From Acidobacteriota bacterium (GTDB taxonomy: Bacteria > Acidobacteriota > Vicinamibacteria > Vicinamibacterales > 2-12-FULL-66-21): a DNA stretch of 30,972 bases. Of this stretch, positions 16,544 to 21,294 are shown piece by piece. The stretch spans positions 1 through 30,972 of the forward strand of contig JAYTEJ010000101.1 of NCBI GenBank assembly GCA_043735365.1. The letters are read 5' to 3'. Position numbers and translations under genes: made by a program. Below the pieces are notes generated by a model that was given only the letters and a program-made list of their open reading frames with translations, was not told the origin of the DNA and made no database searches. How positions within the stretch are numbered: position 1 is the stretch's first letter; every line of letters starts with the position of its first letter.

Positions 16544-17947
16544 TTATGGCAGCTTTACGGCGGCGGCCGTCGGCTCGAGCCGCTTCAATTTCTCGATCAG
16601 CGTCGTCCGCTTCAGGTTCAGCAGCTTCGCGGCCTGCCGCTTGTTCCCCTGGGTCCGTTCGAGCGATCGCCGGATCAGCGACAGCTCGACCCCCTCGATA
16701 TAGCGCTCGAAATCCAGCCCTTCGTCCGGGAACCACACCGCGGCGGCATCGACCGGCGCGGCCTGCGTCTGGATGTCCGGCGGCAGGTCCTGAACGTCGA
16801 GATGCAATCGGCCGTGGTTGAACGCGAGCGCCCGCTCGACGATGTTTTCGAGCTGGCGGACGTTGCCGGGCCATGGGTAGGCCATCAACCGCCGCAGCGC
16901 GTCCTGCGAGACGGTCACGTGGCCGCGTCCTGACTCTCCCGCCAGCTTCTGGAGGAAGTGCTGGACTAGCAGCGGCACGTCCTCGCGGCGCTCGCGCAGC
17001 GCCGGCAACTGCACCGGGATGACGTTGAGCCGGTAGAAGAGATCCTCCCGGAAGCTGCCGTCGGCCACCATCCGCGACAGGTCCGAATGGGTGGCGGCGA
17101 TGATGCGCACGTCGATCTTGACGGTGTGCGAGTCGCCGACCCGCTCGAACTCCCGCTCCTGCAGCACGCGCAGCATCTTGGCCTGCAGCGCCGGGCTCAT
17201 CGTCCCTACTTCGTCGAGGAAGAGCGTCCCCTTGTGGGCCTGTTCGAGCTTGCCTTGCCGTGTCGCGATCGCCCCGGTGAAGGCGCCGCGCACGTGACCG
17301 AAGAGCTCGGCCTCGAGCAGCGTCTCTGGGATGGCGCTGCAGTTGATGGCCACGAAGCGGTTGGCGCGGCGCGGGCTGTTGTGGTGGAGCGCCCGCGCGG
17401 CGAGCTCCTTGCCGGTGCCGGTCTCGCCGGTAATCAGCACGGTGCTCGACGTCGCCGCGACGGTCTGCAGCAGCTGAAAGAGATTGCGCATCGGAGCGCT
17501 CTGTCCGACCAGTCCCTCGATGCGGTAGCGATCTTCAAGCTGCGAGCGGAGATACGCATTCTCGGACTTGAGCCGCCGTTGCTCGAGTGCCGAACGGACC
17601 ACGTGGAGGAGAGCATCGAACTGGAACGGCTTGGTGATGAAGTCGGCGGCCCCCTGCTTGATGGCCTCGACGGCGTCCTTCACCGTGCCGTAGCCGGTGA
17701 TGACGATCGGGATGATCTCCGGGTAGCGCTCGAGCGCCGCGTCGACGACCTGGCGGCCGTCGATGCCCGGCAGGCGGAGATCGGTGATGAGGATGTCGAA
17801 GGCGAACTCGGCCAGGCGCTGCAGCGCCGCTTCCCCGCTGCCGGCCTGTTCGACCACGAAGCCGTGATCCGCCAGGCGCTCGGCGATGGCCTCGCGCAGC
17901 GCGGCCTCGTCGTCCACTATCAACAGATGCTTGGGATCTTCAGCCAT
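16544..17947 (-). CDS. Sigma54-dependent response regulator (REC-AAA+-Fis HTH), FleQ/FlrA-like C-terminus
   Basis: REC LLIVDDE...LITDLRLP...TKPF; [49 protein letters not shown]; [19 protein letters not shown]. Confidence 0.95.
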
Positions 17948-17958
17948 GGAGGCAGATG

Positions 17959-17972
17959 GTCGGTATTTTGAC
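17959..17972. promoter_or_regulatory. Candidate bEBP binding box upstream of the activator gene (autoregulation)
   Basis: GTCGGTATTTTGAC. Its reverse complement GTCAAAATACCGAC matches the 18610-18623 box at 12/14 positions. Lies 11 nt from the ATG. Confidence 0.5.
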
Positions 17973-18046
17973 ACCCCCAGGGTCCGGCGGTCAACGAGAG
18001 CCGCGGCGCAGGGCCAGAATGAGGGCGCGCGCGTGTGCGCGGCAGC

Positions 18047-18075
18047 CTACAGCGGGGCGCCCACCCGTCCGATAA
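18047..18075 (+). promoter_or_regulatory. Candidate sigma28 promoter for the HTH/mini-DHp pair
   Basis: CTACAG-N15-TCCGATAA. The -10 is 7/8 to GCCGATAA; the -35 is TACA versus TAAA, with a spacer 1 nt longer than the enteric consensus. Confidence 0.45.
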
Positions 18076-18141
18076 CATTCTCGAACTTCGAATGCGGTAA
18101 CCCGTTCCGGTCCGGTTCATCCGGGCGTGGCGATGAGAGCG

Positions 18142-18706: not shown

Positions 18707-18756
18707 CGCTGAGTCTGCGTCTGCGGGGAAGGTTCGTCTTTTCATCGCTTTGTGTC

Positions 18757-18772
18757 TGGTACTCCCGTTGCG
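18757..18772 (+). promoter_or_regulatory. Sigma54 (-24/-12) promoter of the sigma28 gene
   Basis: TGGTAC-TCCCG-TTGCG has exact GG-N10-GC spacing and ends 55 nt before the ATG. Confidence 0.75.
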
Positions 18773-18827
18773 GTTGGGGTGGCAGGTCTGCCGTTGTGGC
18801 AGCCAGCACTTCTGGAGGAACCGAGAC

Positions 18828-19739
18828 ATGCAGCGTCAGCCCCTTGCCGCCCATCATCAGGACCGAATTGCCGCCGGACTGCCATTCGTGGAGTCGCTGG
18901 CGCGTCGGGTGGCCGCCTCGATGCCGCATTCAATCGAGCTCGGAGACCTGGTGCAGGACGGCATGATCGGCCTCATCGACGCCGCCTGCCGCTTCGACGA
19001 AGCCCGCGGCATCAAGTTCGAGACCTTCGCCGAGCGGCGCGTCCGCGGGGCAATGATCGACGCGCTGCGCCGCGACGCCTGGCCGCGCGGCGTCCGCCGC
19101 CAGCGGCGTGAGCTCGAAGCGGCGCGCGAAGCGCTGCGCCGCGAGCTCGGCGCCGAGCCCTCACTCGCCGATCTGGCCAAGCGCGTCGGTTCCGACGAGG
19201 CGCGGCTCGGCCGCACTATCGTCCGCATTCACACCATCGAGTCGACGTCGCCGATGTCGGCCGCTGAGCACGTCGACCACGCCTCGCTTCCCGCGGTCCT
19301 CGTCCCCTGCGAGCCGCCGACGCCCGACAAGGCCTACGAACAGCAGGAAGTACGCGACCGCATGCGCGCCGCGATCGCCTCGCTGCCGCCGCGCGAGCGC
19401 CGGGTGATCGCGCTCTATTACTATGCGGAAGCGACGATGAAGGAAATCGGGGCGGAGATTGGCGTCAACGAGTCGCGGGTGTCGCAGCTGCACGCCCGCG
19501 CGGTGCAGCGGTTGAAGAAGGCGCTTGGCGCCGAGTGCTTCGCCGAGGCGCCGATGAGCCCGGCGATTCTCTCGTTCCAGGCCACCATCCGCCGCCGCCG
19601 CATGGCCAAGGCCGATCTGCCGCAGGGGCCCGGCGTGGTGTTGCAGTACCGCGCGCCGGAAGCGACGGCGCCGGTGCGGCGGCAGACGGCGGCGTCGCGC
19701 CGGCCCGCGGCCGTCGGCGCGGTCGCAGCCGCGCGCTGA
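18828..19739 (+). CDS. fliA: FliA/WhiG-family (sigma28) RNA polymerase sigma factor with C-terminal extension
   Basis: DLVQDGMIGLIDA, FETFAERRVRGAMIDALR, WPRGVRR, EATMKEIGAEIGVNESRVSQLH. GGAGG SD before ATG 18828. Confidence 0.9.
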   Translation: MQRQPLAAHHQDRIAAGLPFVESLARRVAASMPHSIELGDLVQDGMIGLIDAACRFDEARGIKFETFAERRVRGAMIDALRRDAWPRGVRRQRRELEAAREALRRELGAEPSLADLAKRVGSDEARLGRTIVRIHTIESTSPMSAAEHVDHASLPAVLVPCEPPTPDKAYEQQEVRDRMRAAIASLPPRERRVIALYYYAEATMKEIGAEIGVNESRVSQLHARAVQRLKKALGAECFAEAPMSPAILSFQATIRRRRMAKADLPQGPGVVLQYRAPEATAPVRRQTAASRRPAAVGAVAAAR

Positions 19740-19749
19740 TCACCGCGCA

Positions 19750-21294
19750 TCAGACGAGCATTTCGCGGGCGACGCGCAGCAGGTCCTTGAGGCGGAACGG
19801 CTTGGCGAGCCATCGGCAGGCCGTCTCCTCGAGGAAGCGCTCCGCCTCGGTCCCCGCGACGTCGCCGGTCACGAACAGCACGCGGCCGGTCATCGCTGGA
19901 TCCATGCGCTCGAGCTCGCGATAGAACGCCGTGCCGTCGAGCCGCGGCATCTTCAGGTCGCACACGATCAGGTCGTAGGCCCGGTCCCGTACCCGCTCGA
20001 GCGCCTCGACGCCGTCGCCCGCCCGATCGACGACGAACCCGGCATCGGCCAGCGCTTCCGCCACCGCCGCGCCGAGCGCCGCCTCGTCTTCCACCACCAG
20101 CACCGCCGCCCCGGCGCCGACATCGTCCGACAGCGAACCCTGATCCGGGGGACGGGGGAGCGCCGGTTTCAGCGGCCCGACGCCAACCGGCAGCTCGATG
20201 TGAAAGGACGCGCCGCGCCCCGCCTCGGAGCGCAGCGCAATCCGGCCGCCGTGCTCCTGGACGATGGCGTAGGCCACCGTCAGCCCCAGGCCGGTGCCCT
20301 TGCCGACCTCCTTGGTCGTGAAAAACGGATCGAAGATGCGCGGCTGCACGTCGTCCGGCACCCCCGGCCCGTCGTCGTTGACCTCGAGAATGACGGCGTC
20401 GCGGTCGGCGTCGTGCCAGGAGCGCAGGATCAGCGTGCCACGGCCGTTCGCTCCGATCATCGCCTGCTCGGCGTTGATGATGAGGTTGAGCAGGACCTGC
20501 TGGAGCTGGTGCGGGTCCGAGAACACCAGCGGCAGGCCCGAGGCCAGCGCCTCGATGGTGTTGACGTTACTGAGCCGCTGTTCGTAAGAGCGCAGCGCCA
20601 GCGTCTCGCGCACCACCTGATTGAGGTCGACCATGGCGCGCGTGGTGTGGCGCTTGCGCGCGAAGGTCAGCAGGTTGCGGACGATTTTCGCGGCCCGCTC
20701 GGACTCGCTGAGGATGGTCTCCAGCCCGCGGCGGGTCTGTTCGTCGACCGATCGCTGCGCGAGCCGCTCGGCCCAGGTGAGGATGGTGGCGAGCGGATTG
20801 TTGAGCTCGTGAGCGACGCCGGAAATCGTCTGCCCGAGCGCGGCCAGCTTCTCGGCCTGCAGCAGCTGGTGGTAGAGGTCGCGGGCCTGATCTTCCAGCC
20901 GCTTGCGCTCGCTGACGTCGCGCATCAGCGCCTCGATACGGATGCCGGTGCCCGCCGGCTCGGCGTGCGCGGTGACTTCGACCCAGATCGGGCTGCGGTC
21001 GGAGCGGCGCAGCCGCAGCAGGTAGTCGGTGATGGCGCCGTCGCGCCCCAGCCGTTCGAGGAAACCGGCGCGCGCCTGGGGATCGACAAAGCGATCGGGA
21101 TCGAACGGACGCACTTCGTCCTGCGGCGTCTCCGAGGCGTGCCCGAACATCAGCTTCAGATACGGGTTCGCCGACAGGGTGCGCGCGGTGTCGCTCGACA
21201 GCGTCCCGATATAGACGCCCTCGTGCACCGACTCGAAGAGCCGGGCGAACGCCTCCGGCGGCGCGGCGGCGGCGGCGATGGGAAGGTCTGCCAC
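19750..21294 (-). CDS. Cytoplasmic hybrid sensor kinase (PAS-HisKA-HATPase-REC), CckA-like architecture
   Basis: AHELNNPL, QVLLNLIINA, DDGPG, IFDPFFTTKEVGKGTGLGL; REC VLVVEDE...VCDLKMP...LAKPF. GTG start. Confidence 0.94.
   Translation of the reverse strand: MADLPIAAAAAPPEAFARLFESVHEGVYIGTLSSDTARTLSANPYLKLMFGHASETPQDEVRPFDPDRFVDPQARAGFLERLGRDGAITDYLLRLRRSDRSPIWVEVTAHAEPAGTGIRIEALMRDVSERKRLEDQARDLYHQLLQAEKLAALGQTISGVAHELNNPLATILTWAERLAQRSVDEQTRRGLETILSESERAAKIVRNLLTFARKRHTTRAMVDLNQVVRETLALRSYEQRLSNVNTIEALASGLPLVFSDPHQLQQVLLNLIINAEQAMIGANGRGTLILRSWHDADRDAVILEVNDDGPGVPDDVQPRIFDPFFTTKEVGKGTGLGLTVAYAIVQEHGGRIALRSEAGRGASFHIELPVGVGPLKPALPRPPDQGSLSDDVGAGAAVLVVEDEAALGAAVAEALADAGFVVDRAGDGVEALERVRDRAYDLIVCDLKMPRLDGTAFYRELERMDPAMTGRVLFVTGDVAGTEAERFLEETACRWLAKPFRLKDLLRVAREMLV

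Follow-up and report, generated by a model that had tools for sequence, protein, structure and literature searches.

The window, that is, the whole stretch of DNA analysed here (30,972 nucleotides), comes from a Vicinamibacterales MAG of 3.48 Mb that is 91.5% complete. It holds, in this order, genes for a bEBP, a small HTH protein, a stand-alone mini-DHp, a FliA/WhiG-family sigma factor and a PAS hybrid kinase. The bEBP gene is on the reverse strand, the HTH, mini-DHp and sigma genes run divergently from it on the forward strand, and the kinase gene, on the reverse strand, is convergent with the sigma gene. An earlier note on this DNA had described five adjacent regulators; all five are real and could be assigned to families, but the unit has six genes and gene limits were corrected. 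The features are as follows.

15285..16535, reverse strand: sixth gene, encoding an N-terminal domain of ~110 aa and, after it, a low-complexity tail rich in Trp, Arg and Pro
16544..17947, reverse strand: bEBP with REC, AAA+ (GAFTGA) and Fis-type HTH domains
17965..17994, reverse strand: putative sigma-70-like promoter of the bEBP operon, TTGACC-N17-TCAAAAT, from conservation
18047..18074, forward strand: sigma-28-type promoter of the HTH/mini-DHp operon, CTACAG-N16-CCGATA(AC)
18127/18133..18342, forward strand: small single-domain HTH protein, excisionase/MerR-like HTH_17 type (PF12728, TIGR01764)
18339..18578, forward strand: stand-alone mini-DHp, 79 aa, two helices with H-box LFHRLNNQLGIIL and no catalytic domain
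18580..18623, no strand assigned: enhancer (UAS) pair, GTCAAGGTTTTGGC and GTCAAAATATTGAC, 30 bp apart
18680..18707, no strand assigned: putative IHF-like A/T-rich bending site between enhancer and promoter
18757..18771, forward strand: sigma-54 promoter of the sigma gene, TGGTAC-N5-TTGC
18828..19739, forward strand: FliA/WhiG-family (sigma-28) factor, 303 aa (TIGR02479)
19750..21294, reverse strand: cytoplasmic hybrid histidine kinase with PAS, HisKA, HATPase and REC domains (Pfam)
21303..21308, reverse strand: TATAAT box of the kinase gene

The flanks are of the housekeeping kind only, as had been noted (ATP synthase, Mfd, SurA-like protein, NusG paralogue, Dus, SDR, EamA, HD/OB protein), and no flagellar gene lies within the window. 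Comparison of 17 genera found the five core genes together in 16 of 20 loci, which establishes synteny across the order. One relative (G025) has a split copy of the cassette with all parts still present, and the cassette was not found in one genus of the order represented by a 99% complete genome (G026).

The bEBP matches the Pfam families REC, Sigma54_activat (2e-72) and HTH_8 and contains the GAFTGA motif. Its best NCBIfam matches, AtoC and NtrC, each fall under their equivalog cut-offs, and the cut-offs of the FlbD and FlgR equivalog models in NCBIfam were not reached. The receiver has the canonical Asp/Thr/Lys set, with D13, E14, D56, T84 and K106 invariant (alignment A3). The start was revised from GTG 17974 to ATG 17947 because a stop codon lies just 5' of this ATG in several orthologues. 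The sixth gene is probably co-transcribed with the bEBP gene, since it begins only 9 nt past the bEBP stop; its N-terminal domain adjoins the bEBP at the same position in 15 of 20 relatives' loci and had no match to a family in the Pfam search. The region of the putative bEBP-operon promoter doubles as an inverted repeat, TTGAC...GTCAA, and TTTTGACAC...GGTCAAG is kept in every divergent region inspected.

The kinase gene is adjacent in 18 of 20 loci. Its product is closest in NCBIfam to the EspC and CckA types, under the cut-off, and its Pfam domain matches include no Hpt domain. The TATAAT box, 8 nt 5' of the GTG start, is kept at an equal distance in ~12 loci and suggests a sigma-70-type promoter with a probably leaderless transcript. 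Read from conserved sequence, the promoters of both the bEBP operon and the kinase would be of the housekeeping type.

The HTH protein is 69-71 aa long depending on start choice, the likely start being ATG 18133 with a product of 69 aa. It matches PF12728 (3e-8) and the excisionase family TIGR01764 (36.5 bits, cut-off 28.8), and among chains of solved structure the phage excisionase Gp37 (4j2n) is nearest to it. BldC is a small MerR-like developmental regulator, and the earlier description of the HTH as BldC-like holds at the level of the superfamily but not of the family, the BldC model NF033787 giving 22 bits where its cut-off is 77. Identity over the aligned segment ranges from 64 to 99% across the 17 genera and is at least 77% in all loci except one. 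Within the programme, the protein likely acts as the secondary transcription factor.

With 201 bits, the sigma factor passes the cut-off of the FliA_WhiG model TIGR02479 (189.6), and its orthologues, 63-98% identical, occur in 39 of 41 relatives. Among proteins of solved structure it comes closest to E. coli FliA, at 172 bits, followed by the 278-aa sigma chains 6pfv/6pfj at 168 and 165 bits; we take these chains to be WhiG in RsiG-WhiG complexes. A tail of 60-70 aa with visible motifs extends beyond region 4.2.

The promoter comparison covered 19 loci. TGGYAY-N5-TTGC stands 5' of the sigma gene in all 19 orthologous loci (16 genera), against a background in the source genome of 56 sites of this type per ~7 Mb, both strands counted. 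The two enhancer sites in the window lie 177 and 147 nt 5' of the -24 element, and a GTCAA-N4-TTGRC pair, scored with at most two mismatches, recurs at -178±3 and -148±3 in 17 of the 19 loci, L026 being counted with its sites at -190/-158; every locus has at least one site. Shuffled controls gave ~0.05-0.1 enhancer sites per locus. The candidate cis-sites proposed earlier (sigma-54, enhancer and the sigma-28-type promoter described below) thus occur far above chance. Between enhancer and promoter, visual inspection of several loci showed matches to YAANNNNTTGATW (0-2 mismatches) at comparable positions, and IHF may bind there (18680..18707). Because a fixed-geometry enhancer pair, an IHF-like site and a sigma-54 promoter precede it, transcription of the sigma gene is predicted to need sigma-54 and an activator, a conclusion that supports the control proposed in the note. 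Judged by position, the activator is most probably the divergent REC-bEBP. The source genome has ~25 bEBP genes, and the genome scan found a single UAS pair and a single combination of UAS with a sigma-54 promoter, that of the sigma gene; the bEBP has no other recognisable target there. The search for rpoN found it in 38 of 41 relatives, but not in the assembled part of the source MAG (91.5% complete).

The HTH/mini-DHp operon is preceded by CTAHWG-N16-CCGATA in 19 of 19 loci, with a spacer of invariably 16 nt, and the mini-DHp gene overlaps the HTH stop (ATGA) and is translationally coupled to it. Because this sigma-28-type promoter is conserved, the feedback wiring to the HTH and DHp genes that had been anticipated is supported at the level of promoter sequence. 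The strict motif has 3 matches in the 3.48-Mb genome; the relaxed motif has 8, six of them in front of genes, against 0 for the control. One lies before a gene for a 157-aa lipoprotein. In at least 10 of the 13 closest orthologues of this gene (same genus, 57-100% identical), CCGATA ends ~9-10 nt 5' of the ATG, and in the remaining three it lies within ~15 nt of it; the full motif also occurs further upstream of this gene in two other families (G035, G038). In G000 as well as in G009, the motif precedes the gene for a 376-aa Ig/fn3-like lipoprotein. The predicted regulon is very small, mostly lineage-specific cell-surface lipoproteins or secreted proteins, and its physiological output is probably a change at the cell surface. 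The developmental programme put forward in the note finds no support in this handful of predicted surface lipoproteins.

In polar-flagellar hierarchies of the Vibrio FlrA or Legionella/Pseudomonas FleQ type, a bEBP with sigma-54 drives fliA, which leads to late genes including its own regulator. The cassette follows the same order (sigma-70, bEBP with sigma-54, sigma-28), has feedback from a late gene, and its promoter resembles the sigma-28 consensus of the TAAA-N15-GCCGATAA kind; its enhancer half-sites, GTCAA...TTGAC, are similar to the FleQ box proposed for Pseudomonas, GTCaNTAAAtTGAC (PMC6120874). On these grounds the cassette could be the top of an ordinary flagellar hierarchy whose structural genes were lost to an incomplete MAG, in which even rpoN was not assembled. 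This explanation is largely refuted and we regard it as very improbable. The flagellin, FlhA, rod/hook, FliF and FlgM families were not found in the source genome at its 91.5% completeness, and neither FlhA nor FlgM was found in any of 25 genomes from the genus, of which nine reach 95% completeness or more, in line with the non-flagellated host assumed earlier. FlhA and FlgM co-occur in exactly the same 7 relatives, each of which also has a second FliA at 37-42% identity, encoded 2-4 kb away from flhA with flgM in the region, and retains the cassette in addition. These flagellar FliAs form a clade of their own (support 98/95), and flagellins are preceded by TAAAG-N15-CCGATTA in 6 of 7 cases, a class that differs from the N16/CCGATA of the cassette; a flagellar gene set using the cassette's motifs was thus not encountered. 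The promoter comparison supports a separate FliA with FlgM serving the flagellar genes of these members, and the cassette sigma, conserved across the order, represents an old paralogue that coexists with the flagellar FliA where flagella exist. The cassette differs from the polar hierarchies further in its activator, which has a canonical phosphorylatable receiver and not a FleQ-type N-domain, in the absence of FlgM, and in its predicted lipoprotein regulon.

We therefore favour, with a probability of about 0.7, a compact six-gene cassette spread lineage-wide over the Vicinamibacterales, an order of widely distributed soil bacteria, and forming a putative three-sigma cascade unrelated to flagella. 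Non-flagellated Legionella also keep flagellar regulators (FliA and FlgM in L. oakridgensis; FliA, FleN and FleR/FleS in L. longbeachae), so that sigma-28, partly with upstream two-component/sigma-54 regulators, persists and acts without a flagellum (PMC5655016). Theirs are remnants of a recently lost flagellar regulon, with a single fliA orthologous to the flagellar one, whereas here the sigma gene is part of a single compact cassette that includes a kinase, a mini-DHp and an HTH of its own. The WhiG proteins of Actinomycetota comprise a flagellar WhiG1 clade and a WhiG2 clade under RsiG/c-di-GMP (PMC12871210). In both cases the sigma-28 family divides into flagellum-linked and non-flagellar clades with diversified regulons, and a small single-domain MerR/excisionase-type HTH belongs to a similar programme. 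Control of the cassette, however, appears to act on transcription, by way of sigma-54 and a phospho-activated bEBP, rather than through an RsiG anti-sigma with c-di-GMP, and morphological development is not evidenced for its host.

The mini-DHp, taken alone, has no significant Pfam match, HisKA being the top family but sub-threshold. Alignment to the DHp of the cassette kinase by hhalign gave a probability of 95% (E 3e-8) with both His residues aligned, and control domains gave <0.5%. F24, H25, N29 and others are invariant (19 sequences, 16 genera), and the His is also kept in distant homologues from another family. DHp homology, the invariance of the His, the weak interface predicted with REC and the lack of Hpt domains in some complete genomes fit a second His carrier in a His-Asp-His-Asp relay, which is plausible; a role as phosphatase or modulator fits almost as well. 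The predicted complex of the bEBP REC with the mini-DHp dimer, in which REC helix 1 and the beta5-alpha5 loop face the His-bearing helix, reached an ipSAE of 0.51, the best control 0.25; by the tool's own rating this is weak support, and it may reflect memory of solved REC-DHp complexes.

That REC-docking model would fit equally well a cascade in which the mini-DHp is a receiver-docking phosphatase or competitive blocker of the bEBP or kinase, or forms mixed dimers with the kinase DHp. The kinase would then phosphorylate the bEBP directly, its own receiver serving as a sink, and sigma-28-dependent synthesis of the mini-DHp would bring about shut-off, giving a pulse or homeostasis. HisKA kinases use an acidic H+1 residue in autokinase chemistry, and Asn at H+4 is tied to phosphatase activity; in the mini-DHp H+1 is Arg, Gln or Lys and the H+4 Asn is invariant. 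Its gene would be switched on by the sigma factor, like flgM in classical systems, and most relatives encode Hpt domains elsewhere that would be available. A pure phosphatase or blocker, however, has no need of the invariant His, and the hybrid kinase has no Hpt domain of its own; in three cassette-bearing genomes at least 99% complete, the search found no Hpt domain at all. We consider this alternative unlikely, though worth serious weight. A strict upstream need for the mini-DHp would require its basal expression, because it would be made only once the sigma factor is active; such wiring equally suits a negative-feedback phosphatase.

Distant mini-DHp homologues in another acidobacterial family lie within flagellar clusters and adjoin fliA-flgM, so the ancestral partner of the family may be a sigma factor or flagellar regulator rather than the cassette kinase. 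With FlgM missing from all non-flagellated genomes, the cassette sigma has no known anti-sigma, and the mini-DHp or small HTH could be a FlgM/RsiG analogue in which the histidine box is a relic. The mini-DHp gene is directly 5' of the sigma gene, precedes fliA in the distant family too, and is, like flgM, predicted to be sigma-28-dependent. That family, however, encodes a true FlgM right after fliA, so the mini-DHp is no replacement there; the H-box is the strongest conservation in the mini-DHp, and profile searches found no similarity to FlgM. The predicted mini-DHp/sigma complex scored 0.00, which according to the tool does not argue against binding. An anti-sigma role is improbable.

With the DHp-based histidine phosphotransferases Spo0B, ChpT (PMC3433190) and PhyT (PMC5898713), the proposed carrier shares a kinase-derived dimeric DHp helix pair with a transferable His between two receivers, a putative role in the cassette, and a hybrid kinase without Hpt domain. 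It differs in being a two-helix hairpin only, with no C-terminal CA-like domain, and in its basic H+1; phosphotransfer by the mini-DHp is likewise putative.

In the cascade that we favour, the PAS domain would sense a cytoplasmic signal, whereupon the hybrid kinase would phosphorylate itself and transfer the phosphoryl group onto its own receiver. A dimer of the mini-DHp may then accept it on His25 and pass it to Asp56 of the bEBP, a tentative step to which we give slightly less than even odds. The bEBP with sigma-54 would transcribe the sigma-28-type gene, whose product would read CTAHWG-N16-CCGATA before the HTH/mini-DHp operon, as feedback, and before a few surface or secreted-protein genes. 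If the relay is true, sigma-28-dependent synthesis of the mini-DHp would make the cascade a self-reinforcing switch. A flagella-type sigma factor would thus be switched by a kinase and an activator in a genus where the flagellar markers searched for were nevertheless not found.

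The cassette occupies 15285-21294 of the window and comprises the following genes.

15285-16535, minus strand: Trp/Arg/Pro-rich protein, seen in translation
16544-17947, minus strand: REC-AAA+(GAFTGA)-HTH_8 sigma-54 activator (bEBP), assigned by Pfam
18127 or 18133-18342, plus strand: HTH_17/excisionase-type protein of 69-71 aa, divergent from the bEBP gene
18339-18578, plus strand: mini-DHp, 79 aa, its start overlapping the HTH stop codon (ATGA)
18828-19739, plus strand: FliA/WhiG-family sigma factor, 201 bits against a cut-off of 189.6
19750-21294, minus strand: PAS-HisKA-HATPase-REC hybrid kinase, convergent with the sigma gene

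The bEBP start was set to ATG 17947 and not to GTG 17974 because several orthologues carry a stop codon just upstream. Annotation of the neighbouring genes agrees with the earlier description of the flanks as housekeeping only. Two PP2C-type genes lie on the same contig, a GAF-GAF-SpoIIE (PP2C) phosphatase (25648-27444, plus strand) and a separate PP2C phosphatase (4628-5410, plus strand), and no link of either to the cassette was seen. An Rfam scan of the window gave zero family matches.

The metagenome-assembled genome (MAG) that holds the window measures 3.48 Mb in 637 contigs and is 91.5% complete. It was compared mostly with other MAGs, the relatives being non-independent samples and all of the evidence sequence-based; one unpublished genome (G022) is a single row in the tallies and no claim depends on it. 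Relatives found via mini-DHp carry the label Vicinamibacterales or Acidobacteriota, in some cases 'gp6'. The bEBP, HTH, mini-DHp, sigma and kinase genes keep their order and orientation in 20 fetched loci from 17 genera, which sustains the proposal of the earlier note that they form a unit. The exceptions are loci interrupted by contig ends, a locus with no adjacent kinase (genome G034), one in which mini-DHp went undetected within a 2-kb gap (G039), one in which the HTH gene was not detected (G031) and a cassette split by an insertion of ~8 kb (G025). The Trp/Arg/Pro-rich protein gene begins 9 nt past the bEBP stop and encodes an N-terminal domain of ~110 aa followed by a long Trp/Arg/Pro-rich repeat tail, with no match to any known family; its N-terminal domain is retained after the bEBP in 15 of the 20 relatives' loci, and the gene is therefore counted as part of the unit. 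Sigma orthologues (63-98% identity) occur in 39 of 41 relatives. Of the 17 genera sampled from the order 16 have one, and in the 17th (G026) the sole sigma match is the flagellar paralogue. A phylum-wide sample (n=301) includes 24 further genomes of the order, and a mini-DHp profile found a relative in 22 of them; in a large collection it found one in 497 species genomes. G026, a 99% complete genus representative, yielded neither the sigma orthologue nor mini-DHp.

The activator is of NtrC type, with the receiver Asp, Thr and Lys (D56, T84 and K106) invariant, an AAA+ domain whose GAFTGA motif is seen in the translation, and a Fis-type HTH. Its N-terminal domain is a canonical receiver and not FleQ-type, the scores against FlbD and FlgR are 326 and 322 (cut-off 750 for each) with AtoC and NtrC scoring higher, and it falls outside the FleQ/FlrA, FlbD and FlgR classes. 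The two intergenic regions of the cassette, whose sequences are otherwise not alignable, were compared across 19 loci. A TGGYAY-N5-TTGC element lies upstream of the sigma gene in every locus, and 17 of the 19 have a pair of GTCAA-N4-TTGRC sites at -178±3 and -148±3 from the -24 element, one of these 17 (L026) having them at -190/-158. At least one such site is present in all 19 loci, against 0.05-0.1 sites per locus in shuffled controls, and an A/T-rich stretch fitting the IHF pattern sits between enhancer and promoter. The region upstream of the sigma gene reads as a textbook arrangement of predicted enhancer, IHF-like site and sigma-54 promoter in fixed geometry. Within the window's genome the sigma gene is the one place where such enhancer sites come in pairs or lie ahead of a sigma-54 promoter, which makes the activator look dedicated to that gene alone. 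A 48-aa microprotein gene with a sigma-54 promoter (24228-24448), picked out earlier, was kept out of the regulon as no such enhancer site lies nearby.

The cascade proposed in the earlier note needs sigma-54 itself. The rpoN gene (DNA-binding and core-binding domains of sigma-54) was not found in the 91.5% complete MAG, but the same genome holds ~25 bEBP genes and, since rpoN is present in 38 of 41 relatives, its absence is probably an assembly gap.

The sigma factor belongs to the FliA/WhiG family by TIGR02479, with Pfam regions r2 and r4 clear and r3 weak; among solved structures FliA (6pmi) and the sigma chains 6pfv/6pfj come closest to it. A tail of 50-70 aa follows region 4.2 (19540-19739, plus strand; columns 235-517 of alignment A2) and carries the short conserved motifs RRRMAKA and GVVLxY. 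In ~10 genera the sigma open frame runs on into the 3' end of the convergent kinase gene, as either a real overlap or an antisense artefact.

Promoter reading by the FliA/WhiG family was taken to be of the TAAA-N15-GCCGATAA type. Upstream of the HTH gene, CTA[ACT][AT]G-N16-CCGATA is found in 19 of 19 loci with a spacer of always 16 nt. The predicted HTH-operon promoter is of the sigma-28 consensus type, and we infer that CTAHWG-N16-CCGATA promoters are read by the cassette sigma. At one locus (L039, genome G010) the divergent region between the bEBP and HTH genes has grown to ~336 nt by short tandem repeats, with GGGGCTCGG-like and CTGGCACC-like units, and the sigma-28-type promoter is intact next to the HTH gene. 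A conserved TTGACC-N17-TCAAAAT element at the activator operon and a TATAAT 8 nt ahead of the GTG start of the kinase gene (21295-21310, minus strand), also conserved in relatives, make both transcription units look housekeeping-driven. The HTH protein belongs to the broader, MerR-like HTH_17/excisionase family (PF12728 and TIGR01764). Across the order its aligned segment is 64-99% identical, with at least 77% in all loci but one. The label 'BldC-like' given to it earlier describes an analogy of size and fold class and not membership, since it scores 22.3 bits against the BldC model NF033787 (cut-off 77) and a phage excisionase is nearest to it among solved structures; the BldC chains 6ama and 6amk match at E ~0.5.

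No match to the flagellin, FlhA, rod/hook, FliF or FlgM families was found in the window's genome, the only one searched for flagellin, rod/hook and FliF; FlhA and FlgM, searched across the genus, are in none of its 25 genomes, nine of them at least 95% complete. The relatives weigh more here because the MAG is incomplete, and they agree with the view that these hosts have no flagellar genes. The cassette sigma lacks the flagellar gene linkage and FlgM partner of the flagellar FliA class, and neither the HTH protein nor mini-DHp matches FlgM (PF04316). FlhA is present in exactly seven relatives, all of other families, and the same seven hold FlgM. In each of them a second gene of FliA type lies 2-4 kb from flhA, its product 37-42% identical to the cassette sigma, and six of the seven retain the cassette. 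In a tree the flagellar FliAs group with the FliA of another acidobacterial family in one clade (support 98/95), separate from the cassette sigmas; the rooting is uncertain, the placement of this clade relative to the cassette sequences rests on long branches and open forks, and no direction is claimed. Of seven flagellin promoters from flagellated relatives (loci L175-L181; genomes G028, G029, G033, G035 and G039), six read TAAAG-N15-(C/T)CGATTA, with a spacer one base shorter than in the cassette class (N16, CCGATA) and T for A in the -10 element. Ordinary motility control, which the earlier note would have accepted had flagellar genes carried the cassette motif, is therefore not what the flagellin promoters indicate, and there appears to be insulation between the two sigma-28 paralogues.

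The strict CTAHWG-type motif has three matches in the window's genome and the relaxed form eight, against none for the reversed control. Six of the eight stand before genes, namely those of the HTH operon and the following.

contig C166: 157-aa lipoprotein
contig C377: 376-aa lipoprotein with Ig/fn3 and SusE-like features
contig C8: 165-aa secreted protein
contig C21: 83-aa protein

In at least 10 of the 13 closest orthologues of the 157-aa lipoprotein (57-100% identical, same genus) CCGATA ends ~9-10 nt before the ATG, and in the remaining three it lies within ~15 nt. This closeness suggests that the mRNA is leaderless, as the kinase mRNA also looks to be. At locus L043 (16727-16765) 9 nt separate the end of the sigma-28-type -10 element from the lipoprotein ATG, an arrangement conserved in relatives. 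The motif of the 157-aa lipoprotein also occurs in two other families, and a paralogue has a variant of it; that of the 376-aa lipoprotein is found in both the window's genome and G009. DksA was considered as the product of a gene that follows a motif match and lies upstream of gluQ, and was rejected because that gene encodes a lipoprotein. Five well-assembled relatives have 1-5 strict matches each, the cassette always among them. With few motif-bearing genes, mainly for surface lipoproteins, the output is predicted to be small and to concern the cell surface, and there is no sign of the developmental programme that had been suggested for the circuit.

The 19 mini-DHp orthologues share LFH(R/Q/K)LNNQLG(I/V)IL and a second helix, with F24, H25 and N29 invariant. 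Single-sequence searches of Pfam, NCBIfam and PDB sequences with mini-DHp gave nothing significant, and Pfam HisKA is reached below threshold in 5 of the 19 members (best E 0.019). Profile comparison by hhalign with the DHp of the cassette kinase gave a probability of 95% (E 3e-8), His25 aligning with the phospho-accepting His, against <0.5% for three control domains. The protein has the features of a HisKA DHp, a dimerisation domain of two helices whose H-box contains the phospho-accepting His, and in all 19 orthologues it stops after helix 2 at an intact stop codon, with HATPase_c absent. This His-aligned match identifies mini-DHp as a DHp without a catalytic domain. Hpt (PF01627) has no match in mini-DHp or its 18 orthologues. 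Spo0B is a DHp-based phosphotransferase with an extra CA-like domain. ChpT (PMC3433190) and PhyT (PMC5898713) are of the same build; mini-DHp has no C-terminal CA-like domain and is not of the Spo0B/ChpT type.

When the bEBP receiver was modelled together with a dimer of mini-DHp, the predicted complex had a median score of 0.51 over three runs, the best control reaching 0.25; the tool rates this as weak support. Helix 1 and the beta5-alpha5 loop of the receiver lie on the His-bearing helix, the same placement as in kinase-regulator complexes. A predicted mini-DHp/sigma complex scored 0.00, which is not evidence against binding. The cassette kinase is without an Hpt domain; most relatives have Hpt domains, and none was found in three cassette-bearing genomes, each at least 99% complete. 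Against a simple relay stand the basic residue at H+1, the invariant Asn at H+4, a position linked to phosphatase activity, and the synthesis of mini-DHp only downstream of the sigma factor. Because of these features we put a role as His carrier at a little under even odds, and consider it rather unlikely that mini-DHp acts instead as a phosphatase or blocker.

Distant homologues of 80-81 aa from another acidobacterial family keep the His within MH(R/K)LRNILG, and were found inside flagellar clusters or before fliA.

L168, 7507-7752, minus strand: distant mini-DHp homologue
L169, 7554-7796, minus strand: distant mini-DHp homologue
L170, 7194-7550, plus strand: distant mini-DHp homologue

Their neighbours are fliN/fliP or flgE, or else they immediately precede fliA, which flgM follows; this suggests that the family arose within flagellar regulation. 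The reading that joins these results, to which we give a probability of about 0.35, is that mini-DHp would be a minimal homodimeric histidine phosphotransferase linking the hybrid kinase to the sigma-54 activator, self-locking via sigma-28 and setting a cell-surface state in non-motile Vicinamibacterales, with a distant branch in the flagellar hierarchies of other Acidobacteriota.

The cassette copies the sigma order of polar flagellar hierarchies, and its enhancer half-sites recall a proposed FleQ box (PMC6120874). Non-flagellated Legionella retain FliA and some upstream regulators (PMC5655016), and WhiG of Actinomycetota has flagellar and non-flagellar clades (PMC12871210). Searches of the literature on Acidobacteria with FliA and sigma-54, and on Vicinamibacter with flagella, gave nothing on this system. 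New here are a compact cassette found across the order, its presence alongside a true flagellar FliA with predicted insulation at the level of promoters, putative control by a phospho-activated bEBP and not an anti-sigma factor, and a candidate domain-minimal DHp protein.

Vicinamibacterales (Acidobacteria subdivision 6) are among the more abundant soil bacteria and, to our knowledge, their regulation is almost unstudied. The cassette is present in nearly every genome sampled, and ~500 species genomes have mini-DHp. It offers a clean natural case of a flagellar-type sigma-54 to sigma-28 circuit beside, and apparently insulated from, a real flagellar one, with a regulon that is tiny, defined and open to testing, and two sigma-28 paralogues may share a cell through a one-base change in spacer and a one-base change in the -10 element. 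Mini-DHp is a candidate for a new minimal phosphotransfer or receiver-modulating protein. If the joint reading is true, mini-DHp would add a third kind of structure to Hpt domains and the Spo0B/ChpT type. Its synthesis would then depend on the same sigma-28-type factor that it helps to induce, which would turn the cascade into a self-locking switch.
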